Below, piece after piece: positions 1-35,939 of a stretch of 64,000 bases of DNA (positions are counted from its first letter, which is position 1; every line of letters starts with the position of its first letter). The translations under genes and the position numbers were made by a program. Source of the stretch: Takakia lepidozioides. Its lineage: Eukaryota; Plantae; Bryophyta. The stretch lies in NCBI GenBank assembly GCA_030704615.1, contig CM060734.1, positions 5,766,001 through 5,830,000 of the forward strand. The letters are read 5' to 3'. Below the pieces are notes generated by a model. The model worked only from the letters and a program-made list of their open reading frames with translations, did not search any database and was not told where the DNA came from.

Positions 1-1258
1 TTGGGCCTTCGGTCGGAAGGGAAGAAGGTAATTACGACCTTGGCACTCGTCCTTTCATTTCTTAGGAGTCTTGAAATGCGGTGCCGCATTCGATTTCTAA
101 TCGTTCCCCACTGTGTATGCAGACGAAGCAGTTCGATGCATACTTCTTTGTGAAGGAGAACTCCACCTTGCTTTCCGGAAGGAGGGATTGTTGGTTGACC
201 CGAACTGCGACCCCATCGATTACGACGTCATGTTCAACAACGTTCCCACGGAACTTCTCCCTCATAGCCTCACTTCAACTGAACCCCTGCGGTATTCACG
301 CACTCGGAGCCCTGCCTTCATTCAGACAATTATGGAGACATGCACTGACGTGGAGGGCACAGTGCTCGACCTCATCTGTGGGACAGGTATGCATAATCTT
401 GTTGTATGTTTTTATGCAAACTCTCGTTATGCTTTCATTCGCAACATCTGAAGGGCCATGTCATAATGTGTGGATGGCATTGTAACAGGTGCCTCAATGG
501 GGGCTGGGCGGTTTTCCGACCGGCACCTCTTTGCCTACGAGGAGGACACAAGCGTTTGGGGATCCCATCTGGAAGGGCTGCAACGGAATGTGAAGGCTCC
601 CATCGAAGTCAAAGACTCCTCGGATTCGTCGGAGTCGGAGGAAGAGACAGTGGACATTGATGCCGAGGAGAACCCGGAATACAAGTGAGTGCAAACATTG
701 TAAGTTTGCAAAGCCTTCTGGGTGATTTTTTGTCAAACGCATTTCCGGACTGTGTTCTCATTGGTCTCTATGGTGATTGTTATATGCAGGATTGGAGGAT
801 CCAGGTCGAAACATGTAAGGCCTACACTTCCTGCCAGGAAGAATCTCCCGTTCTTTGCGAGGGCCGACTTCATGACGAGCCCGGTGAAGGACTACTCCCT
901 TCCTAGTTATGCAGCTAAACTCGCAAATACAGCGATTAGACGATGTGAGAATCCCAGTAAAGTAGAGCAGATTTTGGAGAGGGCTAGGGAGGACAGAAGG
1001 ATAAGGAAAGAGTTAGCAACAGCTGAGGCAGGTAGACGGGTGCGAAAGTTCATATGTGATTCAGCGGATGAGAGCGATGCAGACAGGGAGGACGACGAGC
1101 CAACGGAGATGAGATGGTCGGTTCCGCAAGGTGAAGATGGGATTTTCGAAAGCCTGGCCAACGACCAGTCCGCTGGAGATGAGAAAGGCAATGACGGGGT
1201 GGAGGCGGAGCAGGACAGTCAAGAACAGGCCGACAGTAGTGATGATTTTCAAGATTAA
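1..1258 (+). CDS. 3' part of a spliced gene encoding an N4-cytosine/N6-adenine DNA methyltransferase-like protein with an acidic C-terminal tail; exons about <1-27, 123-386, 489-684, 790-1258
   Basis: Canonical GT-AG introns join ORFs 113-451, 470-688 and 722-1258 in frame. The spliced peptide RTRSPAFIQTIMETCTDVEGTVLDLICGTG|ASMGAGRFSDRHLFAYEED resembles the SAM-binding half of beta-class amino-MTases (KP..L...I...GD.VLDPF.GSGTT..AA...R..IG.E). The catalytic (D/S/N)PPY motif is not visible and may lie upstream of the window. Confidence 0.6.
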
Positions 1259-1395
1259 TGCAATTTTAATGAACTCTCTGTACATTTAAATTCAATTCCA
1301 GAGTATATAAAATGGAATTCTCCCCGTCCTTCATGTCCCCTCTCCCATGTGCTTCTAAACGACAACATCGTCCAAACCTGGTCCCTCCCAAAATC

Positions 1396-2312
1396 AGAAA
1401 TGCGGCACCGCATTTCAATGTCTGAACGGAAATGTGGAAACTGAAAAAACCTCATTTGGAAATGCGGCACCGCATTTCCAAAACCGGGGCAAGAACAAAT
1501 TTCCGATTCATGGTTTGGACATCAGAAACTGTTCGGACAAACGGAAATGCGGTGCCGCATTTCCGTTTCCGACACGGCAGTTTTGCCGATTGGCAGCTCC
1601 TTCCATGGATGTAAATCGAAATGCGGAGGGTCGAACATGGAAATGCGGTGCCGCATTTACCTTTTGGAGATGGACATTTTCCAACTGCAGACCCATCGAC
1701 GTTCTTGGGCTCCCAATTCCATGATGCTAGACGGGAATGCGGCACCGCATTCCATTGTCCAATAAGAAATTTCGATGACGTACATGGAAATGCGGCGCCG
1801 CACTTCCAAAAGGGACATCGATGTTGGCCCAATTCCAGACCCTTTGATGGAAATGCGGCACCGCATTCCATCGTCCTATAAAAACTTACATTGTCCTATA
1901 AAAACTTTCAATTGCCCAACATGGGAAATGCGGCGCCGCATTTCCAAAACAGACATCGTTGTTTGTCCAATTCCAGACCCGTGTGGGCATTCCGTCTTGA
2001 TGGACGGAAATGCGGCACCACATTCCATTGTCCGATTCGATATTTTGATGACAGACATGGAAATGCGGTGCCGCATTTCCAGAACGGACATCGTTGTTTG
2101 TCCAATTCCAGACCCTTCGACGGAAATGCGGCACCGCATTCCATTGTGCTCTCCAAAAATGTTGTGCCGCATTTCATTGTCCGGTACGAAATTTCGATGA
2201 CGGACATGGAAATGCGGTGCCGCATTTCAAGTATGGACATGGACAAGCATTACCGACTGGACATGCTTGGATAGTGCAAGGTCGAATATGGTGTTGCGGC
2301 GCCGCATTTCAA
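1396..2312. repeat. Array of at least 12 palindromic GGAAATGCGG(C/T)(A/G)CCGCATTTCC motifs with higher-order repeated spacers, typical of transposon-internal/subterminal repeats
   Basis: Copies at about 1397, 1459, 1543, 1639, 1733, 1786, 1849, 1924, 2006, 2060, 2122 and 2208. Spacer segments such as catcgttgtttgtccaattccagaccc recur. The same motif is at 73-91. Confidence 0.9.
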
Positions 2313-2752
2313 ATTCGAAATATGGTAATGCCATGTCAAGAAATGAAATGTTGTACAACATTTCTGTTACGACGACAGCGGAGGAAAGGGAGCTGCCAGA
2401 AAAAGCTTCATGGAGAAAATGGAATGCGGGGCCGAAATTTCGAGCTTCGGCGTGTACATGTTTCCTACAACTCGTACATGGATTTTCTTCACCTCAGGAC
2501 TGTGATATCGCTGACTCTGGTATATTCATATGGATAGACACATTGTAGAAATGAGACCTCAAATTGTAAACAGTGGGCCAATTACGGCAGTTCTTGAACA
2601 CGATGAAACACAAGCACACAGAAGTGAGGTACGATGGGTTGTTTTATTGATCGAACACGGTGTCTCACATTTAGCAGCTCTAGACAAATCTAAGCCCTTC
2701 CTCCTTCTACATGGGTGTCACCAAGTCGACGGAACTTCGATAGCCCTCAAAA

Positions 2753-3418
2753 CTAACTCATTACTGATGTGGCATCTCGAGGTAAACTGCAATGCGGTCG
2801 ATCTGGTGCCCTTGTGGAGCTGACGAGAATGTCATACCCATCAATCATACCACCATCATACATCGACAAGGTCACGGTGGGCCTCCTGTGCCCGTGCGAT
2901 TCGTCTTCGCAACTCAGCCGAATGTCTCCATACACTGGAAAAGCGGAGTGAACTCCACGAATATAGTTTTCCCCTGTGCCGTCCTCCCTGGTCCACTGGC
3001 AGCAGTTCCAGCGCCAAAGTGAGGCCGTGCGTGATTTGTCCGGCATCCCATTCCAGCTTGGTATATCGAGGTCAACAATTTTCAGGACCCACGGACCGCA
3101 TTGACCCTCGCCCTCACCTCGCTCAAAGCGGTAATAGCCCTCCAGATACTCCATTGGCGCAAAGACTCCCGATTGATTCCAGATGCGTCTGTGAAAAGTG
3201 AAAGCCAGACAATGATGTCTCCTGATTGTGGTATTGAACATAGCATAATCGTGGCCATGATAAGGGCAGTCAGTAGGATATCGCGGCACGGCATCCCTGA
3301 AAAAGAGTAGCGCAGTACGCTCAATGACAGCAGCTCCCGGATGGAGGAGGTAGCAGCGCGGTGGCTGGAAGAAATTCAAGCAAACGCTGCAATTCGTCAC
3401 AAATACTCCAGGGCACAT
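2753..3418 (-). CDS. Unknown protein, paralogue A of a divergent pair
   Basis: 221-aa ORF sharing RWNCCQWT and LSMYDGGMIDG with ORF 3696-4295 on the opposite strand. Confidence 0.45.
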   Translation of the reverse strand: MCPGVFVTNCSVCLNFFQPPRCYLLHPGAAVIERTALLFFRDAVPRYPTDCPYHGHDYAMFNTTIRRHHCLAFTFHRRIWNQSGVFAPMEYLEGYYRFERGEGEGQCGPWVLKIVDLDIPSWNGMPDKSRTASLWRWNCCQWTREDGTGENYIRGVHSAFPVYGDIRLSCEDESHGHRRPTVTLSMYDGGMIDGYDILVSSTRAPDRPHCSLPRDATSVMS

Positions 3419-3546
3419 TTAAATTTCCCCCCTACTGCAGGCGATGAAGATTGGCTCATCCATGGATGTAGCCGATTCAGTTTCCTTCCTGCCATGCAAC
3501 TAGGTGGCAGTAAAGTGCCAGGTGGGCCTATAGCCACTTGAGACGA

Positions 3547-3609
3547 CGAAGTCCATCCCCCCTTCGATGTAAATGCGGCGCCGAATTTCCATCCGGGGGA
3601 TGGACTTCG
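3547..3609. repeat. Hairpin between the two divergent ORFs
   Basis: cgaagtccatccccc (3547-3561) is the exact reverse complement of gggggatggacttcg (3595-3609). The loop contains the aaatgcggcgccgaattt motif. Confidence 0.85.
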
Positions 3610-3695
3610 GTGGCAGATTTCAAACTATACCCCCGTGGATGATAAAGAGGTATCGGTTCATCCACCGCTGGCTTGTTGAACACGTTACACGATGA

Positions 3696-4295
3696 TTGGT
3701 GGGTACTACTTGTGACCCAGATGGTCGTCCATTATTGGAGCCCGCACTGCTCATTCCGCTTCTCATCATTTCGAAAAATCTAAGGGCTTCGTTGCTGTCC
3801 CGCAAGGTGATTTTCATCGGCATCAAAACACGTCCTCAGGGTCCTCCTTTGCAAGGATGTCGTGCTTCTGGAACCGGGACCGACTGCCCTTATGGAGGCA
3901 TCGAATTAGCAATGTATTCGGGCCACATCGGGAGACATCGTTATCTGGTACAGAAGATACAGGTTCGAATGTGGAAAACATTGCATGTGCTATGCCCGGT
4001 TTTGTTGCGGTGGAACTGCTGCCAGTGGACGTGGGTGGACTCCATCGGAGAGACTTATACTCCAGAAGGAGTGCCGCTCATCTTCTCCATTGTATGGGGG
4101 ACATTTGCATTGGTGTGGACGGCGAAAAACGTGAAGCTTTCCATATTCGATGGTGGTATGATTGAAGGGCACCAGGACTGTGGTGAACATCAACAGGGGC
4201 GGTACAACAGGATGCAATCCAGTTTTACCCTAGGGACAGCCCCGAAGACTCATGAGCTAGTTGTGAGAGCAGTCGAAGTCCCATTGACAACGTGA
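3696..4295 (+). pseudogene. Unknown protein, paralogue B of the divergent pair (probably frameshifted)
   Basis: Contains LLRWNCCQWT and LSIFDGGMIEG, matching ORF 2753-3418. Confidence 0.45.
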
Positions 4296-4702
4296 CTTGT
4301 ATTCAGAAGGCACAGGGCTAAAGATTTGTTTGCCACATCAGCACAGTAGACGTGCTTCAAATGCAATTCATGTGGATCAATAAAAACCCCATGTAGCCCC
4401 TAATTTTGTTTATTCTGTATCCATGCCGTTCCCAAAATTGCATCATTCCTCATTTTGTTGGAGGGGAGTGTGGGTTGGATTTTGCAAGTGGCTGGTAGGC
4501 TGAAATGGCGCCCCCATTGTACAGATCAGTACCACCCTACATTCGCGAAACATTGCCTTTCAATGTTAATTCTAAACAACATTGCCGAACCTCCTTCATC
4601 GCGGAGGTCCTTCTCCCCTATGACCGTGACACCCTACACCCTATTCCCGCGGACACTCATTTCCGGAAAATAGTCATGCTCATGTTTTGTTCGACACTTA
4701 CG

Positions 4703-7700
4703 AGGCACCCTACCGGTTGAGCCACAGGGAGTTGGTCGAGCTGAAGACTCAGCTCAAGGATTAATGTCAAAGGGGTAATCCGGCCGAGTAAGTAAGTCAC
4801 CGTACGGAGCCACGGTGCTATTCGCAGACAAGAAGGATGGGAAGTTTGCGGATGTGTGTCGATTACAGGGCTCTGAATAAGGTGACTATCAAAAACCGGT
4901 ACCCTTTGCCAAGGATCGACGACCTCTTCGATCGGTTGGCAGGAGCGAAGTATATTTCAGACGAGACGACTTGCCGCTCGGCTATCATCAATTCGGGTGG
5001 CAAGGAGATGAGAGGGAGAAGACCGCGTGTAGGACAGGTATGGTTCATATGAGTTCTGGTGATGCCTTTTGGGCTCACCAATGACACCAGTGACATTTAG
5101 CACGCTGATGAAAAGCTTTTTCAGGAGTGGTTGGATGACTTTGTGATCGTGCTACATCGACGACATATGGTGTACTCGAAAAAAAAGAGAGGAGCACCTG
5201 AGAGCACCTCAAAAGGGTTGTTCCCAAAAATTGCGAGAAGAGAAGAGGAAGCTGTATGCCAAAGCCTTCAAAAGGCGAATTCGGGCGGTCACGAAAGTGG
5301 AGCTCTTGGGGCATGTGATTACACAGGATGGGATCAAATGGGATGACAGGAAAGAGTGAGGGCCACGATCTTTGCCCGACTGGGAGCCTCCGACTTCGGG
5401 TCCGAGGAGTGCGTTCCTTCTAGGCTCGCCTCCTATTTACCGGAAGTATGTGAGAAATTTCTCCAGATCGAGAGGAGACATGTCGGACCTTCTGTGTAAT
5501 CCAAAGTCTGGGTATGGGAACACATTTTGTGCCCAAGCTTTGCCGAATTGAAGCCGCCGGGGATGCGGAAGCCTCCAGTCTTGAAAATCCCGGAGTTCGA
5601 TCGTCATTTGAGATTCATACAGATGCGTCGGACTTCGCCGATGGGGTGTATTGCCTTAGCAGATGGACGTCCAGGGCTTACGAGAAAGCAAGAAACTGAA
5701 TGAAGAAATGCGAGCGACGGTGGCCGACGCACAAAAGAGATGAAGGCGGTGGTGCATTGCCTGAGCTTGTGCGCCACTATGTGGGTTCCAACCCATGTGA
5801 AGGTGTTCACGGACAATGTCACAGTGAAGTATTTTGAACGCAGCAAAGTTGTCCCCAAAACACCTTAGGGAATGGCAAGATACTTGCGGTGTCGACGTGG
5901 ATATCCAGTATCAAACCGCCGAAACGGGACAATGTGGTGGCGATGCTTTAAGTAGAAAGCAGATAGCCCCCCGCTCCTGTTGCGTGCACATGGCGAGACG
6001 GCGCTCAAAAGGAAGATCCAGAAAGCTTGTGTCGGAAGGATGAGGCTTGCGAAGTCCGTGATGCATGACTTAGGAGGGGGTTTAAATCGCAGTCCCACTT
6101 GCAAAATGGACTGCCTCCGGTATAAGCCAAAAACGTCTCTACGTGCCGAAGGAGAGGCAGGGATCAGCGGATAGTCTCTTGAGAGAATGCCATGATAGCC
6201 CGCCTGCGCGCCACGGCCGGAGCCAAGCGCACTGCCCGGCAATCTTGAAGAAGAAAGAGTATTTCTGGCCCAAACTGAGGAGGAGGCAGAGGAGTATGTC
6301 AAGACATGCACCAATGCCAACAAAACCGAGCGAGCTACAAACAGCAAGCGGGGCTGTTACAACCCTTGCCGATTCAAGAGGGGACTTGGAAAGCGTCTCG
6401 ATGGATTTCATGCTGCTATGCCGCTGTCAAGAAGGATTCGATGCAATCATGGTGGTGGTGGATAGGTTCAGTAAAAATGGGCCATTTCATCCCCACCAAG
6501 GCGACGCAACGGCAGGGCAGGAGACATGACGACTTTACTTTGCCAACGTCTTAAAGCATCATGGAGTCCCAAAGGATATGTGTCTGGACCGCGATCCAAA
6601 GTTTACCAGTAATTTTGGAGGACACTTTGGAAGAAGATGGGGACGAGCCTGAAGGAAGATGAGCGCCGCCTTCCAACCTACGACGGACGGCCAAACGGAA
6701 AGAGCTGAATCCGTAGTGAAGCAATTCTTGCGCAGAATTACGTGTCGGCAGACCAATCAGACTGGATGGAAACTTAGACGCGGCAGAGTTCTGTTATAAT
6801 AACACAAAACACTCTGCAATGGGAGTTTCCCTTTTCGTATTGGTCTATGGAAAAGCACCTATGGTGCCGACAAGTTGGGCCGCCCAGGACGTTGAAGAAC
6901 CGCGTAGTAGCGGAGAGGTACTAGAAGAACGCGAGCATTTGTTGAAGCTCGCAAAGCACAACATTGCCAAAGCTAGGAAACGGTATGTATGAAAGGCAGG
7001 CGAATCGGAAGCGCGAGAAGGAACGCCGGAAGTGAAGTTTGAGGCAGGCACGGAGGTCTGGTTGAACATCAAGAATTTCGACTACCTCCGGAAGTGAGTC
7101 CGAAGTTCGTACCTCCATATGCGGGACCCTTTCGCATTCGGAAGCCGTATGAATGAGGATGTGTATGAATTGGAGCTGCCAGCAAACAGCAAGGTGCACC
7201 CAGTATTCCATGTCTCCCTTTTGAAGCCTTACTTCAAAGATGAAGCGCGTCCGAATCGGCATCAAATGTTGCGTCCGCCACCTATGCTATTGGATCATGA
7301 AAATGAACCTGAGTACGAGGTGGAGCCAGGAGAGTAGTACTTAAATCGAGGAGGTTCAAAGACCGAGAACGGAGTATCTCGTGAAATGGAAGGGCTATCA
7401 TCATGTGGAGGGCATTGCGGGGGCGTTGCCTCAGAAATGGGAAACGCATCTGAGGCAGTTGCACAGCGTTCGATGGGCGACCTCAAAAGCGGAAGAAACG
7501 TTGATGGGGACATCAACCTTGGAGCGTGGGGGAGGAAATATGCATGCTTAGCACGGTTTTTAGCTAGCTCAGGAATCCGATTGCAAAAAACTTTGTATTG
7601 TACAAAAATTTTATTTATAAAAGGAAATGGGTTCCAAATATTGTGCGTCCTATTGTGTTTGAATGGTGATGCACATGGTGTGGTTGGCTAGTGTGTAGAA

Positions 7701-9147
7701 TGCATGCTAGCCTTACAAAGTGGGAGAGGTACATTGGGTAATCGTGTGCTTGCGCAGTGCCGAACCGGTGAATCCCATCCAAGGGGCAAAGGAAACATGC
7801 GCCTTCTTTGGGAGTTCACGTGCTAAGTGCCCGCACCTGGCGAGCCGTGCGCGCTACTATAACTGCCCCGCTACCGAGGTGGTTGCCCTTGTAGTGCGGG
7901 CTAACGCGGAAGCTACGCCTGCTTCCGTTCACGTACTATAACGTGTAGCCTCGGACGAAGTCGTAGTGCGGCTTCGACGTATTCCCGTACCTCAGGCCAG
8001 CATTCCAAGGCGGACCCAATTGTAGTGATTGGGGTCGCACGGTTGGTTCAAGGTTATCTTCCTAGTCAAAGAGGGTTCAAGGTGAACCCTTGCTCAAGGT
8101 GATGCCAAAGCGGCATCACGAGCGGTCGGCAAGCAATGTTGTTGCCAGTTAAGGCGATTCGATCCTCGGGTAGGATCGTTCCTGGCTTGAAGTAGGCCAA
8201 GAAGAGTGCACTGGGAGGAGCTGGAGAGGCTCCACCCTTGGCCGGGACTTGGAGAAGTCGGGCCGAACTAGCTAGTGGAGAGTGGAGTCAAGTGTGGGGT
8301 TTGGTTCTTTGCCATGGGACGCCATGGTACGGAAACAAACTCCTGATGTGCGACGCCCACAACTTGGATGTTCGTTTTACAAAAATGACAAGTCGATGAG
8401 GACCATCGACTCCTGTGGTAGGGTGTGTGTCGCGGCCCTTGCCTTGAAGGCAGGGGTCGGGACACATGAGGGGCTGCCCCTGTGGTGGGGGCAGCGGCAG
8501 ACGATAGGTATGGGGCGGCTGAAGCACCCTTGAGTGCCCCAAGGCACTCAAGGAGGAGGAGCGCTTCACTAGGTGGAGGCCCCGCACACCGGGTTGCGGT
8601 GGGGGTGGCTCCACAAGAGGTGGTGGTAGCTTAGCGGGACTTAGTGGTGGGTGGATAGGACTCACCATGGGGGCGGAGACCTCGTGGTGGGAGTCAGTGG
8701 GCAGTCTTGAGACTCATCACAGTCCATAGGGGCCGTGGTGGCGGGCCAAGACTCACCGGGAGTCGAGGGTTTTCGTGGTGGTTCGCCCATTAAAATGGCA
8801 TGGCTGTGTGTCAACCCCCGCGGACAGCTACAGAAGTATATATAGGGAGTAGTAACCCGAGAACGCGGGCAAGCCCGTTGGTGACCAAAAACTAGGGAGA
8901 AGCGTGCGAACCGGGGAAAAGCGAACCAAAGAGTGGGGAGCTTCCGGACTGCCATCTACCAAAGGGAATTCCTCTAGGCCCAAAGGGGGTGGAGGGTTTA
9001 TTTAGTGGAAGCGAAAGGGGGACCGTTACGTCCCGGTGAGCAGCCGAAGTTCAAGTTGAGCCGGCGGCCAGGTTGGGAGTCAGGCGCACGCATCAAAGCG
9101 AGTAACTATGAATTGAAGGGGAGCTTACCGAGGTGAGGTGCGCGACA
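4703..9147 (+). mobile_element. 5'-truncated, frameshift-rich copy of the chromodomain Ty3/Gypsy family (RT-RH-IN-chromo, 3' UTR, LTR 8428-9147)
   Basis: [69 protein letters not shown] and EPEYEVE are present. The DNA is collinear with the reverse complement of 46147-50460. The LTR runs TGTCGCGG...GCGCGACA. Confidence 0.93.
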
Positions 9148-10377
9148 TAGCCCCTCAAATAGGTGGGAACCACTTCCACCCGATCCTCGTCACTCAACTT
9201 GGCCGCCCGAAGTACTGTTCTAGCTCCAGAGCCAGGTTGAGTGCCTTCGATTTTGGACGCCCCGAAGGTGCCGGGTTACTTAGGCTTCACCCTTAAACTT
9301 TGCCCTTAGTGGAAGTGGCATTAGCCGCCTTCAACACGTCTTTCAACGTCCCGCCAAACTGCGCAACAACCCTTCCCAAAAGGCTGCTGGCATGGGAGAC
9401 ATCTGTTGGTCTGTCGGAGCTCTCTGGATTCCTCGGGCTCTGACTCCTCAGATTCCTCCCGTTCTTGAGTGGCCTTGTTTTCAAAAGCATGCATCGCTTC
9501 CTCAAACGGCTGCTTCGGTGACACGTCGCTCCCATCGGGCTCAACAAGATTATCATCTTTCAGGTCGCTCCGCTTTCCGCTTTGGTTTGCCCAACCCCAG
9601 ATGAGGCGATCCCAAGGACGATCGCGTACTAAACTCTAAGCTCTGATACCAAGTGTCGCGCACCTCACTTCGGTAAGCTCCCCCCTTCAAGTCATAGTAC
9701 TCGCTTTGATGCGCGCGCCTAACTCCCACCTGGCCGCCGGGCCAACTTGGAGCTTCGGCGGCTCACCCGCAGGACATAACGGTCCCCCTTTAATCCCCCA
9801 ACAGACCCTCCACCAATTTGGGCCTAGTGGAAGTCTCCTTTGGTAGATGGCAGTCCGCGATAGCTCCCCACTCCTTGGTCGTTTCCGGCTCGCTCGCTTA
9901 CTCAATAGTTTTGGTCACCAACGGGCTTGCACCGTTTCTCGGTTTACTACTCCCTATATATACTTCTGTGACTGTCCGCGGGGGTTCCACAAACAACACC
10001 ATTCTTTTATGGCGAACCACCACGAAGACCCTCGATTCCGGTGATGAGTCGCGCGTGAGTCTTGGTCCACCACCACGGCCCCATTGGACCGTGGATGAGT
10101 CCCAAGACTCCCCACAACTCCCACCACAGGGTCTCCGCCCATGTGAGTCCTATGCCACCCCCACTAAGTCTCGCTACAGCTACCACCACCCTCGTGGAAC
10201 CACCCCCATCGAACCCGGTTGCGGGGCTCCACCTAGTGAGCCGCTCCACCTCCTTGAGTGCCTTGGGGCACTCAAGGGTGCTTCAGCCCCCGCATCTATT
10301 GTTCGCCACCGCCCCCACCACAAGGGCAGCCCCTCTCGTGTCCCGACCCCCTGCCCTCAAGGCAAGGGACCGCGACA
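9148..10377 (-). mobile_element. 5' end of a second copy of the same chromoviral family: 5' LTR 9654-10377, Met-tRNAi PBS and gag start
   Basis: PBS tggtatcagagc on the - strand at about 9640-9651. The sequence matches 51845-53078, and the gag start reads MSPKQPFEEAMHAF. Confidence 0.92.
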
Positions 10378-12052
10378 CTTGTGTAGAAGCGTGCTCCCAC
10401 CTTGGATGATGCAGAGACACAGTTTGCATGTATACGGGCTTGGTGGACAACGTCAGGTGCTGTAAAGAAATCAGACGAGAGAGCAATGGTCAGTTGGCTA
10501 GCATGGTGGCATTATCGTTTCCTCAGTTTTTGGCGACTATATGCGGGAGGTGAGTTGGACGAATTCACATCCCGTTCAATATTATGCTAGTAATATTTTG
10601 TAACTTGCTTGTAACCTAAACATGTGTATGTGAAGGAAATGTGTCTGGACTCCGACACCGACATGCCGACAACAAACATGGCCGAATCAGTACATTATTC
10701 TTGGCGTGCCTCCTCTGCGGCGCATCTGGTGGACATCCTCACTGCCACAATGGAGGACATTGTGAGGTCAATTATCAACAATGCAGGTACAACGAGTTCT
10801 TGAAAGGGAAACAGTGGGGCTTGGGGCCGAACAGGCAGGAAATGCTGATGCGGACTGCCTCCAGATCGAAGAATCCTCGCAAGTGGACGGCAGCCTTGCG
10901 AGAGGGCCTTCGGGACATGCCATTGCTTCGAAGAGGCCAACACATGGAAGGAGATGTTCACACCCGTCCAGTGAGACGAAGACTTGACGAGGCACCTGGC
11001 GGAGAAGAGGATTCATGGCGAGCTGACAAGAATATTTGCACGTTACCTCGTGGTCCCGTGATGTTGCCCGAGGAGGTCTCGTCGAGCACCGCAAGTTCTG
11101 CACGTTTAAGATCGCCATCTCCTTTGAGCACAGGGCACGTGCCCAAGGAACATAACGAGCCATCTGTAGTAACGCAGTACAACATACCTATTGTGGAGAC
11201 AAGAGTGTCGGAGTCACAGTGGAGAATTGCAAGGACATTGCCGGCATTTCGAGGGAAATACTGCGCCATCCGGGTGGATACGAGAGCACGCCGTGGTGAG
11301 ATGATTCGGAGGAACCCACACGGTGCTGTACCTGCACCTTGTTTCAGCGGCAGATTTTTGACTCCCACATTCTCTCACGCCACAACGCAGACGTTTTGGT
11401 TCTGTAGGCACGACATAATGACCTGTGTATTTGGCAAGCCCAAGTACGGGATTCATGGAATGTCGGAGCCTCCGGGCGTCTGGCCTGTTGCACCGGGTTG
11501 CAACATCTTTGAGAATGAGGCGGATGCTCTTTCTGCAGCAGGATTTCGAATGGTGCAACGCACAGACGTCCCGGCCCACTCGTTTCCAGTTCCTCAGACC
11601 CAGCCATTGTAGACTGCTCGGTCCAGTACAGACGGATTGGACAATTATGCACATCCCACAATGTGATTCGAAAGAGTGAAGAGACGACACCCTCCCAACA
11701 AGTTGAATGAGACTCAGATTGCCAATGCTCTTGGGATGGCTTGCACTATTCAGAGCTCAATGGACGTACCCCCACCCGGCCTTGGGTGTGTTTATCGGAT
11801 GGCAACGGCCGGCTCAGCTGTATGCGACGACGTATACACAATTACGATTGGAGTGGAGCCGACTTGCAATTGTACGGACTTCTCGTTGATGGAAGCAAAG
11901 AATGGGTCAAAGTAATATCCGTGCAAGCATCTATATTACATTTACCTGAAGAGGTTGAGGATGAACATGACTATTGATGACTTTATTTATGCACCAGCGT
12001 TGAGCGTGCATGAGCTGCACAAACTCCTTCGCCGGGATTCCAGAAATCATTG
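10378..12052 (+). pseudogene. Mutator-like (MULE) transposase C-terminal part with SWIM zinc finger, disrupted and 5'-interrupted by the LTR
   Basis: MPTTNMAESVHYSW from 10663 resembles the MULE TN.AES motif carrying the third catalytic residue. AWWTTSGA...WLAWWHYR lies upstream. A SWIM signature TCNCTDF...*YPCKHLYYIY at about 11860-11945 contains an in-frame stop. Frameshifts are present. Confidence 0.7.
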
Positions 12053-12329
12053 ATGGGACAAAGAGAATCCACCATATGGATATTTGCAATTGTATTTTGA
12101 TGCATTAGACTTTGTTTTGCAGTGTAATGAATTGCACCCCAAAACTCCTGGAATGAGACAGACAATATTAAAGTGATGTTTTTTAAACACTATGGACTGC
12201 TGGATATCCGTTGACGTCCAGTGGCAATTCAATGTCAAAACAGAATCAATACAAAGATGGCGGTAGGAAAAATTTGCAAATCTTCCAGAAAACTGAGTTC
12301 CAACAGTTGCAGTTGATGGGGCCATTTCT

Positions 12330-12853
12330 GGAAAAATGGCGCCGAATTTCCCTATTTTGGGCCAAAAACTGGCTAAGTCCCAACATGTACGGGAACGATG
12401 TCTGAAAAAATGGCGCCGAATTTCCAGTTACATGGCCCAGAACTGCCCGGCACCATGTACCCAAATTCGGCGCCACATTTTCAAATTTTGGGCTTACACT
12501 TCAATCAAGTTGGGACCTATAACCGCGAAATTCGGCACCATTTTTTGCCGGAGACACCTATTACTGCGCAATACGTCGCCGATTTCTCCGCTTGCGGAAC
12601 CTATTACCGCGAAATTCGGCGCCATTTTTGCATATGTCGCTCGGAATTCGCATGAGCGGAAGACGAAATATCATGAGCACTGCTCTCAAAACTACAATTT
12701 CTACTTCAAACAATGAATATTATATTGGTTTTTTCTGACACATTCCATTAAAATAATATTTTTAATATTTTTTATTTCCAAAATTTGTACTTCTGCTCAT
12801 GAAAACCGATTGTCTTACTACTCCGCTCATGCTCATGAAATAGCTAACCTCTG
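12330..12853. repeat. Subterminal repeats and candidate right terminus of the DNA transposon
   Basis: aaatggcgccgaattt occurs direct (12335, 12408) and inverted (12463, 12528, 12612), followed by repeated ctcatg/catgag motifs. The core is related to the motifs at 1396-2312 and 3571-3590. The partner TIR and TSD are not visible in the window. Confidence 0.55.
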
Positions 12854-13860
12854 CGAGGAAGGAAGGATATCGTGTAGAGGCCATTGATGCCCTCTCTTAG
12901 ATTCTGATTCATCCAAACACTTACACATCCGTTACACAGTACACAGGAGTAACACTTTTCAAAGAACACCAGCCGCCCTAAGCTTCGTGCTGATCCCTTT
13001 TATAAACGAAGGCTCATGATCTTATCCAACAGAATGGCAAGCCCTGATTGGCTGCTTGGATTCCAGCCAGGTGCCCATCCAGATAGGATGCCACCTCTTC
13101 TAACTTAGAGATAAACTAGCTGTTAGCATAAGACATTCCTGTTTGTAAATAGATCTGTCAGTGGGGTTCATCCATACTTTCCCCAACGGCCATTCATCCA
13201 CCTTTATTATTGTACGTTCACCAAGATGTCGAAAAAACAGGCAGAGGGAATCTAGCCATTACAACCTCATATATATATTTTCCCCTTGTACTTTTTTTTG
13301 TTTTTCCCCTGCATGCTTTATTTCCCCTCGAAGTCTTTTTTGTTTTTGCCCTATATGATTAACTTTCCCATTATGGCTTTTCCCCTTTCCCCAATGAATC
13401 TTCCCTAGGTGCTTTCCACTGGTGTCCTCATTTCCCCACGACTATCCCCTGTTATTTCTTCCTTCTACTGTGCTAATTGCACCAAGTATATGTAAGAATC
13501 ATGCATATGCCACCATGCAATCATGTAAGAATCATGCACATGCAATTGTATGCAAGAATCACTTCATTCCATTGAATAATGTGCGTCCCATCCATTTTAG
13601 ATCTAGAGCAATGTGTGAGTAGTTTACAGTAGAGCTTCCAGCTCTAACCGGAATGTGGTAATGCCGAGTCCACATCCATACCCTGTAGGTTAGCATGCTT
13701 CCACCATTTTGCTGCACCTCAGCTGACAAATGCATGTCCAACTCAGTTTCTGAGAACTTCAATATTATATCTGTTTGTTGTCATGCTGATGTCTTTCCCC
13801 AAGCTGGTCCTGCTATAGCCATCCTCCAATGTAAAAATTGCAGGATAAGAAAGAAGCAGC

Positions 13861-14938
13861 TTACTCTAGCAACTGTTTGGCAAGTGTAGATGACTTCTTT
13901 TCACGAATAGAAAACACACAGCTTTGGCTCCAAGACCTTAATCCAATCCCCAAAGCCACAGAAGGTTGCCTCTCCACCAGCTGACAAGGCTTGGGCTGGC
14001 ATTCATCTTGGATGAATGTTGCTGAAGCTGCTGCAGCTGCCACTAGTGCCGCTGCAGCCTCATCTACTTCTCGTTTCTCACGTGCCTTCCCTGCCTGCGA
14101 ATAGCTGACCCCCACGAATGGTCGTGAGGTTACACCAAAAAGCTGCGACTAACATAGTCCAGCCATCTATTGACAAAATTCACTCAATACTCTTATATCA
14201 CAGCACATTCATGCAGGGACGTGTAATTGCCTCAGACAACTTCCGCGAAAACCTTGGTACTATAAGGAGGAAGAAAGAATTTAGACAACAAAAATGATAT
14301 CATGAACAAACTTGCAACGTATTCCGACGACTTCAAGTTTCACCTAGTTGTTACTGCAGAAACAAGATAGTGCTTGAAGGTAGCATACCTGGCCCGACCT
14401 CAATATGTTAGTAGGTCATGCGTCTGCACTGATCCATCATGTAATTGATTTTTGGTGCGAAATGTGCAGCTTGATCTCTTTGATATTTGCGGAGAAGCCT
14501 CAATTATCACCTTTATCCCAGTACCATAACTCATACGACACCAATACAAAACTTGCATGACATGCTGCTTCGTAGTGCACCGGTAGTCATTCTAAGAGCG
14601 CAGTGTCTATGCTGGCTCTGATCTGTAGGTTCCAAAGGTTCTGAAACCAACCACTAACACTTCCAAACTTACTTGCAACGAAGCACATAAACGTTAGTGG
14701 ACAGCCCAACGCATCCCTTCCGGCTTCTGAAATGCTTCAATACACGCTCCTTCAGAGCGAGACCTACACACAATGTGGAAACTACCTTGGATGCGGCATC
14801 GTCTGTGCCGAAATCGCCGGTCTTGGAGATCCCATCCAGGTCACCCTCCAAATCACCTTCCATTTCTTCCGGGATCTTGCCCCCATACACTTCGTGCTCC
14901 TCACGAATGAAGTTGATTTGCGCAGCGGCAACACCGAC
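13861..14938 (-). pseudogene. Possible degenerate spliced gene of unknown function
   Basis: Protein-like segments (VGVAAAQINFIREEHEVYGGKIPEEMEG...; LRLLRKYQRDQAAHFAPKINYMMDQC; AREKREVDEAAAAL) are bounded by plausible splice sites, but contain stops and a frameshift. No family was recognised. Confidence 0.25.
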
Positions 14939-20277: not shown

Positions 20278-23200
20278 ATGGCAGCGGCGTCGCATGTGTC
20301 TCAGCGTAGGGCGGCGCCGGATATGGCCCTTCCGCAAGCAGAAATTAACTGGGATAGGTGATCTTCATCACTCATAGCACGATTCTAATTTTTCACTCTG
20401 TCGGGCTGGTTTCTGATAGTCTTATATTTTTGCAAGTTATTTGAGGATTGGGTTGGTTCTCAGCGTGTTGGAGAATCTACAAGCTTAGGGATTAAGACCA
20501 GCCTGGAGTTTCAATAGTGCTCGTGTACAGCGACAATCCGATCCAGCAACCAGCTGCATTTTTAGTAGCTAGTCGTAAATGCCCGATATCCCTACGCTGA
20601 TCAGCTCAGCTCAATCCTAGTTTTTGTTCGCTGTGATACAGCTAAAATCATTTTTCTTTTCTTCGCTATTGTTTCTGATAGCGATTGCCCTCCACTAACC
20701 GTTTCATTACCTTCATCAGGACTCGATATTACTCGCGTAATAAAATCTCCAAGCTCGTCTTTGGAATCTTTGGACGCTTCCAATTTATTTTCTCTTTTCT
20801 TTTTTGACTTGGCCATTCGAATTAGAGGCTAAAATTCTACTGCGTACACAGAAAGTTGAAGGCTTGATGCTATACCCAGCCAGTTGGCACCTTACCTTTT
20901 GTTGCAGCCTTGCTTCTGCAACCAAGTCTATTTGTATTATCCGATTTGTGAGTAACAAACAGTCAACCTACTATTGCATCAATTGTCTGTGAAAATTAAA
21001 ATGCTTTCAGCTGCATTTGGGCGTGTCCTTTTTTACCTTGAAAATCTCTGTTGGAATTGTTAATAGTGCACATCACAATTTTGAAGCCTTTATGTAATTG
21101 CTGACATTTGACACAACACAAAAAATTAAGAGAAGGAGACTGCATAGCAGGATTTTGAACAGCAATGTGGAATTTGAAGCCTTGATCAATATACCCGGCA
21201 ACTGAGCTGGTCAGCTTTTGTTGCAGCCTCAATTTGTGCAAGTATTTGAGAAATACGAGTGACAAACAGGTCACCTGTTTGGGCATGAATAGTTTTAATT
21301 TGCACTGCTGGTTAAGTTGTAGCCATGGATATATGCTTCTCTTCTCTCAATGGCCAGTATGTGTACATTCATGGTATAGTTCCTTATCATCAAATTATGT
21401 CTATTAGTGTTGTAGGGGGCCTAGTGAGTCTTTTGAACTCCTGCTGACAATTTGGGCAGAGCCCCTTTCTGCATGGATTCAGTCAGGGAAGGCCTGTATG
21501 ATGGAACCATGGGCATTTTTCTTGACTGCTAAAACAATAGAACCACTCTGAGTTCAGAGAGTTCTTTGTAATCCACTGTCATCCAATCAGTCAAGGAAGC
21601 ATGCTGAGTACAAGACTGAGGGGTGTGAAGTGGATTGCAGACTAGACAAGACCAAGTTTTTCTTGGTGGGCGCAGGGCTTTTCTCTGGGGTCTCTGGGTT
21701 CCTCTACCCAATCTCTGTGGTGAAGACAAGAATGCAAGTGGCGAGGGCTGATGCGGTTCACACAACAGCACCATCAATTTTCAGACATGTACTTAGATCT
21801 GAGGGCATTTCAGGCCTCTATAGGGGTTTTGGCCTCGTTATCACTGGGGCAATTCCGAGTAGAATAGTTTTTATGACCACTTTGGAGACCACAAAGGCTT
21901 TCACTTTGAAAATCACGGAAAGGTTGGAGTTACCAGAGACCGCTGGGGCAGCCATAGCCAATGGCACTGCAGGGCTATTGTCATCACTTGCTTCTCAGAC
22001 TGTTTTTGTCCCTCTTGACGTGGTAGGGCAATTGCTTGCATGTTCTGCACCATCCCTGTGGCAGTTGTACTTCTTCAGTTGTTTTCCTTTACCTGCTGAT
22101 AGTTTTTCGAGGTGGAATATGGCATTTTAAATTATGTGTATTTCCTTGGCAGTACTTTGGAGTAGGAGTAGGAGCTTACAAATTCCTAGTCGCTCACTGA
22201 TCTTAATAAAGAAATAAATCAATGACTATTTTGTGTTTTACGTTCAATAGGAATGACTCTTCTACTTAACTCTTCTGTTTTTCACAAAAACTTGCACACA
22301 TAGACTTGGCCAGATGGATATGGGCAAGCACAATCTATGAGTACAATCCACGATATTGCAGGGTAACATCCATCCCTCCATCATTATGTCTTTGATTGTA
22401 GATGACTCTCAGGCTTGAACGAATTGCCAACAGGTGAGTCAGAGACTTATGGTGCAAGGCACGCGAGGAGCGACCAAATATGCTGGAAGCATGGATGCTA
22501 TCCACAAAATTCTGAAAGCTGATGGTATTCGAGGGCTTTATCGGGGATTTGGGATGTCTGTGCTAACTTACTCTCCATCCAGTGCTGTATGGTGGGCTGC
22601 TTATGGATGTAGCCAGCGCCTCATTTGGAGGTGGGTTTTGTCTTTGTTAACATCAAATATGTTAACTGGGGAGAGATATGAAGCCTGCTGGGTTTTGTCT
22701 TCCCATCTCTTCTCGGTTTCATACCCTCTGTATCTCTGTCCTTTCTCTGAATTAAATTGCTACAAGTTTAAATCTCATATTAGTTTGGCCCAACTTGCAG
22801 ATACCTTGGATATGGAGCCGGCAAAGAGAAGGAGCTGCCTAGTCAGGCGGAAGTGGTGTTGGTCCAGGCCTGTGGGGGTGTAGTTGCTGGCGGCACAGCA
22901 GCCATTGCAACGACTCCCATGGATACCATCAAAACCCGTTTGCAGGCATCAATCAATACAACACCATGCTGTTTTACATGAAGTCTTGGACCTGATTAGC
23001 TAATGCCTTTACCCTGCTCAGTGGAGTGGAACATGTATGCTAGGACTTTTTTGCATGCTGATAACGTGTGCACAGGACCGGGGATGGCGTTCGTTGGGAA
23101 CACCCCACTGCATCCTGGTAAACAGGTTTTCACAGGAAGGCGCAGTGGGGCCATCCCCCAAAAATGCAGTGCTAGTCAGACCTACAGTGGGGAAGAGATT

Positions 23201-23878
23201 CTTTCCCCAGCCTTACCTGTCTAAATAGTCTAAAAGTAGGCTCCTGTTCTGGCTTTATGTGAACGTGCTGTAGGGGCATCTAAAACAGATTTGCACCGCC
23301 ATAAGCCAGTTTCTGTTTGCAAGTTAGACAGGGAGCTCCAGGTTGCACAGGTTCTGACAGTTACCATCGTTATATCTCTCTTTTTCAATTGGGTGTACCT
23401 TGAAGTCTGGGACCGTGTAATTTTCTTGTGGTCCTACAGTCGATTTGTTCTCCCCCACAGCTTTGTGTTCTTCTTCCCTTCTACCACACTCAGTGACTTC
23501 CATAGACTGGCGCAGGTGATGGTAAACGAAGGGGAGGGCCGACCCACCATAAAGGAGATAGTGAAACAGCTCCTCAGGGATGATGGCTGGCGGGGATTTT
23601 ACAAAGGGTTGGGCCCACGCTTCCTCAGCATGTCTCTTTGGGGCACCTCCATGATTACCACTTATGAGTTTCTTAGTATGTTGCATTGCCCCCACTATAT
23701 TGGGCTGCTCTCTTCTGACCGTTCTATGACTGTTTCGGACTGATGTTACTTTTATCTTCTGTTTTCAGATTTGCAATATAATTCAGTGTTTGGACAGCTG
23801 GATGAAGGTGCCTAACCAGTGTGTTCTCTGTTGAATATGGTGGATGCAGAACGGCTATCTGTCAAGCAGGATACTTGA
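20278..23878 (+). CDS. Mitochondrial substrate carrier family protein (SLC25A44-like); exons 20278-20357, 21641-22022, 22434-22630, 22801-22945, 23516-23675, 23850-23878
   Basis: The N-terminus reads EINWDRLDKTKFF. Three carrier signatures are present (PISVVKTRMQ, PLDVVSQRLM, PMDTIKTRLQ), plus GLYRGFG and GFYKGLGPRF. Exon phases are consistent and the CDS ends KRLSVKQDT*. Confidence 0.92.
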
Positions 23879-25199: not shown

Positions 25200-27020
25200 C
25201 TGACAGTGAAGGGGGTTTAGTTAGGGGAGGATCCAATCAGCCAACCAAAAGCATTTTGTTTTGTTGAAGCTTTCTTTGGCAAGCTTATGCACCTTCTAAA
25301 TGTCGCCTTCTGAGCTCTTTCTCCAGGTCTTTCTTGATAGATCGATTGGTACGAAGGGTTGTCTTAGAGTCATTCAGAGTTTCTTCCTCAATTCTGTCTT
25401 CTCCATCTTCCTTCTCAGCGACCTTGAAACATTCTCGCCTTATTGATTATCCCAGGGACATTGGTCTATCAAAGTCTTCCATGAAAGACTGACTGAAAGA
25501 CATCGTACCTGTGCAGGATGTTTCTCAATCTTGTCTTGTCCACCATTCCACTCCAGTCTGGCAAAGAAGCTGGCGCCATGTAAATTGTCTCTCAGGCATG
25601 AGGGACTTTGGGGCAGAGGAGAGACACATATGTCAGTTTTATCTTCCAAGGCTGTTGGGAATGAAGCTTCCTACTCAGGATGTTTGGTTGCTGCCTCTCT
25701 GAATCTTGGGCAATTCTGTAGGAATTCTCCAAGACAGTCCTGGAGGTTACAGTTGCTAGGGAACTTTCAGCTTTCTTCAGTGCTTGCTTTTCTTTTCATA
25801 GCCTCCTCCAACATACTACGGTTCGCTCCAGCCTGGATTTGAGTGAGGTCGCCTCGGTCTTGGGCTGGGCAGAAACCTTGCTTAAGACCCAAGCTGCCTT
25901 GGATAGCTGGGGGCCCAGTAGAGGCTTGGCCCAAATTTCCAGTTTTGCCTACTGCTGGCTCTTTTGGAAGAGGTTCGTAGCCCCTAATGCTACAGCTTCC
26001 AATGGCAACTTAGAAATATCTGCAAGCATGTGAATGTGTCGATAAGTTTCAGTACAAAGCTCTGTCACTAAGAGTTCTGAGACGTGACGTGACCTGAGCT
26101 CTGGAGTTGACGATGCAAAGTTATGTACTCATCTTTTCCCCTCGCAATAACCAGTTGACACAATACTTCAGCTTGAGGGCTGCCTCCTTAGACTGCCTAG
26201 GTGCACAAAGATTGCATGTAGCACGGGCATAAGATTGGACATAGTTTGAGGACCCTCTTTATCCTCTTCCAGTAATTTTTGGAAAACAGCCAAGCATTTT
26301 ACTAGATTCCTTTCCTTCAGAGCAATGGAGTCTGCCAACTGTTTGGAGAGCTTCTGGCATATCGATCTAGGCTCCCGCAGCTTTACCAAGAAGTGGTGAT
26401 TAGGAGAAACAAAACTCCAACCTGCAGACTCCCAGCAGGAGCTAATATCAGCAACCATTGTTGGGATTGATAAGAGACTGGGATTAAGCGTAACATAACC
26501 TCTTCCTTCAACTCTACGTCATGGATACCCAAGTTAAAGCCACCTCCAAGTGGTCAAATTCAGGAAAAGCAGGACCCATCGGCGATGAGCACGACCAAGG
26601 TAATAAAACTGAAGAGCAATAGATTTGGTCCAATCTAGTCATCCGTAGACCAGGGGGCGCTCGGTTATTGGACCACGAGAACTGAAAAAAAGATTCTGCT
26701 GACTAGGGATGGATGCATCCAAAAACCATACGGACAAACAAATGGCTTCCCAGGAGTACCGTTCTTCCAGGGAGAGTGTGTGATCTGCAAAACCTGAGTG
26801 ATCATCAGTCAACTGAATCATGTTGAAATCACCTGCCATCACCCAGTGGTCAATATTTTGACAAAATCTTAACTTTCAACAAGTCCCAAAGCTCAATTCC
26901 CTCTGCAGAAACATTGGGAGCATATTTATTAACTAAACCAACCAGCCCATTGGTGCCAAGAGAACACAAACATGCAAATTGGACTCTGCCTTGCACCCAG
27001 ACATCCACATTTGAGATAGA
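25200..27020 (-). mobile_element. Degenerate L1-like LINE ORF2 fragment (APE endonuclease region)
   Basis: APE motifs LVNKYAPN and WVMAGDFNMI at about 26810-26940, with many stops. Boundaries are approximate. Confidence 0.65.
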
Positions 27021-27143
27021 TCCAGTCAGGGAGGGGGGGGGGGGGGGCAAGATTGCAGTCCCTCCCTTGGCATCCACAAAAGTGCGATTCCACCACGCTG
27101 CTTGAAAAGGCCACATGGAGCCTCCTAATGCTGCGAATTTCGT

Positions 27144-27217
27144 GTGATGAAGGATTCATATACCCAGTAAAGACACCACAATGGTTATCACCCATTGTAA
27201 TAGTGCCCAAGAAAAAT
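27144..27217 (+). mobile_element. Short Ty3/Gypsy RT N-terminal fragment
   Basis: GFIYPVKTPQWLSPIVIVPKKN matches the Gypsy GxIxP...W.SP.V.VPKK motif. Confidence 0.6.
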
Positions 27218-34008: not shown

Positions 34009-34026
34009 CCATGTTGTAGGTTCAAC

Positions 34027-35478: not shown

Positions 35479-35939
35479 ACTGCAGGCAAAGCAATTCCTG
35501 TAAGCCCTCAGGAACCGCCGTATACGTCGTCTCTCTCCTCCGGTGACAATGGGTCCAATGTCAGGCTCCCAATTGTCCTCTGTAACTGCAACCTTAAGTC
35601 CAGTGGGCTTAGAGGTAGAGGACTCGTCCAGTGGTTACTATGTTGCAACCTCTTGAGCAGTACTCCCTACCTGCTCAGTCAGTGACGAGGCCTCATCCTA
35701 CCCCATCATCTCATCCTCAAGGACTTCCTCCACCCGAGAAAAATCTCCAACCTCATCTATCACCGCCACCTTGGCTGCCAACTCCCTCTGAACCTCGAGC
35801 ACCTCCCACGTGTGCCATGGATGCCTGCACCCCGTGGTCCTCACATGCTCGCCCCCACTCACTGCCTGTACCATCTCGGTAGGCAGAGAGACCATCGAGG
35901 GAAGTGTACTCCGCACTCTGCGTTGCTCAGCCATAGCCA

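Follow-up and report, generated by a model that had tools for sequence, protein, structure and literature searches.

The first 1.3 kb of a 64,000-nucleotide stretch of Takakia lepidozioides DNA (assembly GCA_030704615.1, contig CM060734.1, positions 5,766,001 to 5,830,000 of the forward strand; hereafter the window) contain the 3' part of an intron-containing gene that belongs to a high-copy repeat family and lies beside an array of short palindromes. Its product contains an S-adenosylmethionine (SAM)-binding unit. Positions 3-1258 comprise the last four exons of this gene. It is proposed here that they encode the C-terminal half of a permuted amino-methyltransferase of the N6_N4 type (beta class), and that the gene is an accessory of a DNA transposon; we regard this reading as evenly balanced between acceptance and doubt. 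The window as a whole is plant-like eukaryotic in character, with short GT..AG introns, remnants of Ty3/gypsy elements and a mitochondrial-carrier gene; the stretch is also present in a sequencing run labelled 'plant metagenome'.

The exons were delimited by direct reading and joined by coordinate splicing (Table 1). All three introns begin with GT and end with AG, and splicing leaves an open frame of 317 codons. Where the second intron is removed, the product reads ...VLDLICGTG followed by ASMGAGRFSDRHLFAYEED..., and as a whole VLDLICGTG-ASMGAG...FAYEED. Exon 2 carries the block LVDP..DP...D.(L/M)(Y/F)N ... SPAF(I/M)QT..ETC...VLDL..GT. In exon 3, helix B is followed by an acidic serine-rich stretch. 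From this stretch to the C-terminus the product counts 178 residues, among which 44 Asp plus Glu and 25 Lys plus Arg. The original prediction, made from the sequence letters, had described an uninterrupted spliced frame at this place. Introns and the string VLDLICGTG-ASMGAG...FAYEED were confirmed, but the frame is uninterrupted only in the version chosen there (relatives of the gene favour the other frame over positions 123-167; see below).

Relatives were sought with the exon-2 frame by phmmer (HMMER) in a full pass over 1.84 billion representative proteins. Eight proteins were found at the threshold of E<=1e-3, five of which (P0003, P0004, P0006, P0008 and P0009) are true relatives with 33-43% identity to the window. 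These are short unnamed or 'hypothetical' open reading frames (ORFs) on metagenome and genome contigs, and they share the pattern L-V-D-P..D-P...D-x-L-Y-N ... S-P-A-F-M-Q-T-L-x-E-T-C-S...V-L-D-L..G-T-G. Similarity starts near the start of exon 2 and stops at G-T-G, after which P0004 and P0008 enter intron-like sequence. The borders of similarity thus match those of exon 2, which supports the predicted splice sites. The top phmmer matches, P0002, P0005 and P0007, were set aside as tandem-repeat proteins whose score is summed over 5-6 stretches. BLASTP analysis revealed six near-identical repeats in each, at ~25% identity, and the family profile, compared with P0002, gave P 0.75, or 0.3 when the window row was left out. 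A word-index search of longer proteins with exon 2 yielded no match.

A scan of metagenome contigs returned five related loci (L001-L005) from 48 pattern matches. All five have in-frame stops inside the homologous exon and are decayed copies. L001, L002 and L003 seem to be a single locus recovered from three assemblies; L004 and L005 seem to be another. An exon-3-like reading restarts in L001 and L004 after an AG at the matching intron position, and this reading is conserved between the two. Among 12 ORFs tested around these loci, one is of the sterol-methyltransferase type, two are ion-channel exons, one has a chance-level match to a viral glycoprotein and eight match nothing. At L003 6895-8073 (+), on a 66-kb metagenome contig, an intron-less ORF of 393 codons with Methyltransf_11 and Sterol_MT_C domains was observed; this sterol-methyltransferase-type ORF lies ~6 kb from the decayed gene relative and is unrelated to its family.

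For comparison of profiles with hhalign, a family alignment was built from the window core and the five relatives, to which L001 and L004 were added with X in place of their interruptions. Its best match was to a set of 20 Methyltransf_25 proteins from five bacterial genomes (probability 95.0%, P 3.9e-8, 45 columns), and the match was retained when the window row was removed (95.2%, P 2.6e-8, 44 columns). It runs from a helix through strand 1 (motif I) and helix A to strand 2 (motif II). Judged from these alignments, the presence of a genuine Rossmann-type SAM-binding unit with motifs I-II is well supported. A PDB profile search with the exon-2 family returned chance matches only (E 0.26 or worse). 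In the original prediction the gene was called amino-methyltransferase-like; the cofactor-binding part of that claim stands on the Methyltransf_25 match, whereas its N6_N4 part finds weak backing in the comparisons that follow.

The Methyltransf_25 match also brings in a rival explanation, namely that the unit derives from a class I SAM-methyltransferase of the canonical (unpermuted) kind, as a piece of a host gene captured and amplified by a repeat or as a gene that lost strands 3-7; no amino-methyltransferase would then be involved. This explanation we consider rather improbable, although the best profile match speaks for it. Taken singly, the window protein matches class I at P 3.9e-5 and N6_N4 at 0.013, PrmA alone matches the family at P 6.1e-4, and the loop V-L-D-L-x-C-G-T-G resembles the class I consensus. 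However, the 45 aligned columns run from the helix through strand 2 only, and nothing past strand 2/helix B aligns to the class I set, so that strands 3-7 are unmatched. The conserved block upstream of motif I, taken alone, gives P 0.35 with PrmA and 0.39 with the class I set, while it aligns in the right order to YhdJ 132-151, an N6_N4 enzyme, with P 0.018, above all 100 shuffles. The sole leads from Pfam and the ESM Atlas are to PF01555, the N6_N4 family. Furthermore, the same exon structure is found in relatives from other genomes with 33-43% identity, and a recent capture would not explain this.

Assignment of the gene to the permuted N6_N4 (beta) class is itself weakly supported by the profile comparisons. 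The family matched 19 PF01555 proteins (8 YhdJ-type and 11 diverse) with probability 63.4% and P 6.8e-5 over 56 columns, and with 44.4% and P 2.3e-4 over 67 columns without the window row. Comparison with 79 YhdJ orthologues resulted in a probability of 23.4% and P 8.7e-4, with 101 colinear columns (query 8-116 on YhdJ 132-253). None of 100 column shuffles reached the score of this comparison (maximum 25.6 vs 29.5), and P rose to 0.6 when the alignment was reversed. Residues 41-77 of P0003 resemble PF01555 positions 149-188 of 221 (E 0.13), with no match to any other methyltransferase family. The top three ESM Atlas clusters for exon 2 are all PF01555 (0.86, 0.85 and 0.81), scores that by the tool's own rules count as a lead only. 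The conserved block extends from ~70 residues upstream of motif I to ~25 residues past motif II, and is followed by the acidic serine-rich stretch and a charged tail without a domain. In sequence terms, such a layout would be expected of a permuted enzyme and not of a canonical one. Within the block, (K/H)SPAF occupies the expected place of the HPxxKP-type loop. The string D-x-(L/M)-(Y/F)-N upstream of motif I was considered as a degenerate DPPY motif and dropped, as it aligns to the P-Y-N of YhdJ at ~residue 170 and not to motif IV.

The PF01555 domain of YhdJ covers residues 34-251, with DPPY at residue 40. Since the family aligns to YhdJ 132-253, the catalytic half would be encoded upstream of the window. 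This agrees with the original prediction, which had placed the N-terminal, catalytic half outside the window. Contigs from other copies extend upstream of base 2, among them a 2.5-kb X7 contig with roughly 1 kb on that side. When six-frame translations of the window and of L001-L005 were searched with a YhdJ hidden Markov model (HMM), the best E was 1.8 and the DPPY strings were isolated.

Several results weigh against an N6_N4 enzyme carried by a transposon. Over the motif I-II unit the class I set fits better than the N6_N4 set (score 50.5 vs 35.9), and there the two reference sets, PF01555 and class I, even align with one another at P 2.8e-8; the unit is common to all such enzymes and therefore cannot assign the class. 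The signal from the part upstream of motif I drops to P 0.1 with the diverse PF01555 set. The exon-3 pieces of L001 and L004 were chosen by eye and may bias the profile comparisons. Two checks had been proposed together with the original prediction, a PF01555 search and a structure prediction. Pfam matched none of the four single exon translations at E<=10, and the PF01555 match was seen in one of seven family members, at 12.6 bits vs a gathering cut-off of 26.7. The AlphaFold model of exon 2 (7 sequences) was unusable (predicted local distance difference test score 43.8). No usable match was obtained for exon 3 in the ESM Atlas, and no methyltransferase was matched in the phmmer pass over the 1.84 billion proteins. 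The catalytic motif would lie beyond the sequence seen, in exons upstream of base 1. Outside this window the relatives are few, and they are decayed remains with ordinary genes as neighbours (the sterol-methyltransferase ORF and the ion-channel exons). Finally, no transposase, terminal repeat or target-site duplication links the gene to a defined element.

The gene is a member of a high-copy repeat family. In the DNA run X1 of the organism 7309 contig pieces align to positions 1-2600, of which 2697 do so at >=99% identity, 2912 at 95-99% and 1700 at 90-95%. Summed contig depth in DNA run X5 is 222-307 over positions 1-1401, compared to 0.4-1.6 over 13077-14000; contig depth and numbers of pieces are a rough sign of multiple copies and not a copy count. 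By the same measure positions 1-13076 are repetitive throughout and 13077-14000 near-unique. One X7 contig spans positions 2-1416 with 131 differences from the window, and one X6 contig spans 360-1161 with 67 differences. Both run unspliced through the introns and are therefore genomic copies. Among the indels listed, 4 of 6 in X7 and 2 of 2 in X6 are within introns, intron 3 holding both X6 indels and two of the six of X7. This mostly intronic placement hints at past constraint on the exons. No spliced joint at any of the three introns was present among the aligned records, which are all contigs and have no bearing on expression.

These numbers bear on the explanation that seems least credible, to the point of being nearly negligible, in which a normal host gene present once, or an open frame due to chance, happens to lie beside a palindrome satellite. 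In its favour, no RNA evidence and no defined element termini were found. Against it stand the several thousand contig pieces that match at 90-100% in the DNA run of the organism itself, conserved relatives with the same intron position, a methyltransferase unit matched at P 3.9e-8, and the palindrome copy that lies within intron 1.

The copy in the window is probably non-functional. An extra T behind base 167 is present in 103052/165976 of the aligned depth in the organism's own DNA run, and also in the X6 and X7 contigs. In all 4 comparisons made, relatives agree better with the other reading frame over positions 123-167. Most copies have the T and the relatives share the corresponding frame; therefore the window copy carries a frameshifting 1-nt deletion after 167. 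Read against the family alignment, this deletion breaks the family frame.

The palindrome GAAATGCGGYRCCGCATTTC occurs (with <=3 mismatches) at 16 sites in the 64-kb window, all in 73-3589, while 0.00 sites were expected and 0 of 100 shuffles contained any. One site lies in intron 1 (73-92), 14 form a 0.9-kb array that starts 140 nt past the stop codon (1397-2310), and one lies at 3570-3589; the palindromes are 20-22 bases long. Degenerate copies, read directly, continue to ~2440 (2343-2362 and 2421-2438). The half-site AAATKCGGYRCC (<=1 mismatch) has 35 matches, all in 74-3588 or 12338-12623, compared to 1.5 expected and a largest shuffle of 6. The sites at 12.3-12.6 kb have a half-site variant of one base, AAATTCGG instead of AAATGCGG. 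The corresponding T-type palindrome GAAATTCGGCGCCATTTTT has 6 matches vs 0.01 expected, five at 12332-12629 and one at the hybrid site at 3570. G-type half-sites are spread over 74-3582 and T-type half-sites over 3577-12623. The palindromic motif family noticed in the original prediction (at 73-91, 1396-2312, 3571 and 12335-12627) is thus real, with the qualification that its members at 12.3-12.6 kb are a variant. The central dinucleotide of the 16 GAAATGCGGYRCCGCATTTC sites is CG in 4, CA in 6 and TG in 6; in the five sites of the T-type array it is CG in 4 and CA in 1. Such centres would fit decay of methylated CpG by deamination.

One contig of another copy joins the array (position 2230) to position 2514, and therefore the repeat unit extends past the array. 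The gene is likely borne by a DNA-transposon-like repeat, to which no superfamily is assigned. On the proposed reading as an N6_N4-type accessory gene, an intact copy would bind SAM with its G-loop (G-T-G) and with the acidic residues in which strand 2 ends. Exons beyond the left edge of the window would supply the catalytic strand-4 motif as well as the part that recognises the target, and DNA would then be methylated on an exocyclic amino group, either N6 of adenine or N4 of cytosine. The 20-22-bp palindromes are predicted to be sites for a dimeric protein encoded by the element, which could be a transposase or this protein itself. Such a role would be analogous to that of the subterminal and other non-coding repeats of plant DNA transposons. 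The suggestion in the original prediction that the protein possibly acts on its own repeats is speculative. A more far-reaching version, in which the element's own active beta-class enzyme would write N4-methylcytosine (4mC) or N6-methyladenine (6mA) on the GC-core palindromes (GCGGCGCCGC, centred on CpG), seems very unlikely. If true, methylation of the palindromes would alter host silencing based on 5-methylcytosine, or mark the copies for a transposase, and would be an enzymatic counterpart of anti-silencing by VANC, a protein that is not known to be a methyltransferase.

The original prediction had placed the gene, as cargo, in one Mutator-like element (MULE) together with a MULE/SWIM transposase, whose remnant lies at 10.4-12.05 kb; the two arrays would then be internal and subterminal repeats of this element. 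This structure is unlikely. At the place of the claimed transposase a TTNMAES string, which we take to be a MULE-type motif, was read at ~10680 and a SWIM-like CxC...CxH string at ~11862-11935. The latter, however, contains an in-frame stop, so what is left is a decayed remnant. Pfam found no MULE or DDE transposase domain in the ORFs of 10387-12053 and matched neither half of the SWIM string, and a word-index search of longer proteins with the MULE piece 10615-10803 gave no homologue.

The related half-sites are the only tie between the gene and this remnant. A shared element is suggested by the one-base difference between the half-sites of the two arrays, with a hybrid site between them at 3570, by the start of both arrays at 140-280 nt past the end of a + strand coding region, and by the drop to near-unique sequence, so that the repeat block ends near 12.9-13.1 kb. 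Against this, ~9 kb of nested repeats separate the gene and the remnant, namely the first array with its degenerate end, an inverted ORF pair, a Ty3/gypsy fragment (4.8-7.3 kb) and an inverted repeat (8.45-10.35 kb). No inverted partner for 12600-13150 or 2300-2600 was found in the window, and a left end, if any, lies outside it. No contig joining the gene to the SWIM remnant was found among the matches listed. The co-occurrence of homologues with transposase and repeats, which the original prediction entailed, was not borne out in the related metagenome loci, where 0 of 5 loci have palindromes and 0 of the 12 ORFs is a transposase. The claim of a common Mutator-like element is not supported here; no terminal repeats were found in the window, and the remnant has no HMM support.

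Table 1 Features of the gene, the palindrome arrays and the MULE-like remnant in the window
Feature	Position	Strand	Remarks
Upstream exon end, truncated at window edge	3-27	+	donor GT at 28
Intron 1, 95 nt, GT..AG	28-122	+	contains one palindrome copy at 73-92
Exon 2, family conserved block and first half of motif I	123-386	+	5 relatives compared
Intron 2, 102 nt, GT..AG; splits motif I	387-488	+	same break point in relatives
Exon 3, second half of motif I, helix A, strand 2 with acidic end (motif II), helix B	489-684	+	class I motif I-II alignment
Intron 3, 105 nt, GT..AG	685-789	+	
Exon 4, last; charged tail, stop TAA at 1256-1258	790-1258	+	no recognised domain (Pfam)
Array of 14 palindromes GAAATGCGGYRCCGCATTTC	1397-2310		spacing 33-96 nt, two flank types alternating
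Hybrid palindrome, one G-type and one T-type half-site	3570-3589		centre of inverted ORF pair
Decayed MULE-like remnant, TTNMAES string and SWIM-like CxC..CxH	10452-12053	+	read directly
Second array, T-type variant GAAATTCGGCGCCATTTTT, five sites	12332-12629		just after SWIM-like remnant

Other features were observed in the window. Two related ORFs of 221 and 199 codons, at 2753-3418 (-) and 3696-4295 (+), are inverted around the hybrid palindrome at 3570. Neither has a Pfam match, and the first has no homologue in the word-index search. A large imperfect inverted repeat of 1.9 kb occupies 8453-10350, with arms at ~8453-9104 and 9698-10350 that are 72-97% complementary. In several runs no other part of the region reaches its contig depth, and contigs were observed in which opposite strands are joined at this place; the structure is reminiscent of a fold-back element that inserted beside the MULE-like remnant. 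No Rfam match was found in 1-14000.

Further to the right, three ORF pieces in 21552-23743 (+) carry mitochondrial-carrier repeats (E 3e-19, 3e-14 and 4e-7) and apparently represent an ordinary host gene with introns. A Ty3/gypsy-type pol at 32503-35634 (-) has RVT_1, RNase H, and integrase zinc-binding and core domains, and a PHD finger (34.4 bits, cut-off 24) stands at the end of its integrase ORF. An open frame of 634 codons at 27020-28924 (+) harbours a chromodomain (27.9 bits, over the cut-off) and has weak matches to PCIF1_WW (16 bits vs a cut-off of 31.1) and RNase H (16.4 vs 25.8). Possibly, then, the window has another mobile element with a methyltransferase-like module, one unrelated to the gene and comparable to the PCIF1-derived, probably inactive domain reported for DIRS1 (PMC4738411).

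Carriage of a separate, intron-containing N6_N4-like gene in high copy number beside palindromic arrays would, if true, be a new way to carry a DNA-modifying module, and it would make the question whether the palindromes carry 4mC or 6mA a testable one. Its present value is that of a lead, because the gene is cut off at the window edge, this copy has a frameshift and the evidence for its class is weak. Keyword search of open-access text retrieved no description of a PF01555-like gene on a plant DNA transposon; the transposon-borne methyltransferases found by this search are in retrotransposons.

Among known enzymes the gene can best be compared with the beta-class enzymes of PF01555, such as YhdJ of E. 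coli. Like these, it has a helix followed by V-L-D-x-x-x-G-x-G with small hydroxyl residues after the loop, a strand 2 with an acidic end and a domain that ends soon thereafter, and it is colinear with YhdJ 132-253. It differs from them in staying below every curated threshold, in having D-L for D-P-F in motif I and (K/H)SPAF for HPTQKP, and in being eukaryotic, intron-containing and multi-copy. Furthermore, it is known here without the DPPY half, which would lie beyond the window.

Land plants are reported to have few amino-methyltransferases (PMC4738411). Eukaryotic beta-class 4mC enzymes are MpDN4MT1a/b of Marchantia (bioRxiv 10.1101/2021.02.12.428880) and N4CMT of bdelloid rotifers (PMC8885841). 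As proposed for the Takakia gene, these are prokaryote-type amino-methyltransferase folds recruited into eukaryotic nuclear genomes. They are, however, host genes in one or two copies with demonstrated activity, whereas the gene described here belongs to a high-copy repeat and is read from sequence alone. Mobile elements with a nucleic-acid methyltransferase-like module have been described as well. DIRS1 retrotransposons carry a PCIF1-derived methyltransferase domain, of which the copies are predicted to be inactive (PMC4738411), and DAM-carrying retrotransposons have been reported (bioRxiv 10.64898/2026.05.21.726589). Those domains belong to other methyltransferase groups and sit in retrotransposon polyproteins, while the Takakia gene is a separate, intron-containing gene beside palindrome arrays, as in DNA transposons. 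In architecture it can be compared with the VANDAL elements, which are Mutator-like, encode the anti-silencing protein VANC and have short target motifs repeated in their non-coding regions (PMC5735166). By analogy, the Takakia repeat would likewise be a DNA transposon of a plant in which an accessory gene is combined with short motifs repeated in non-coding regions.

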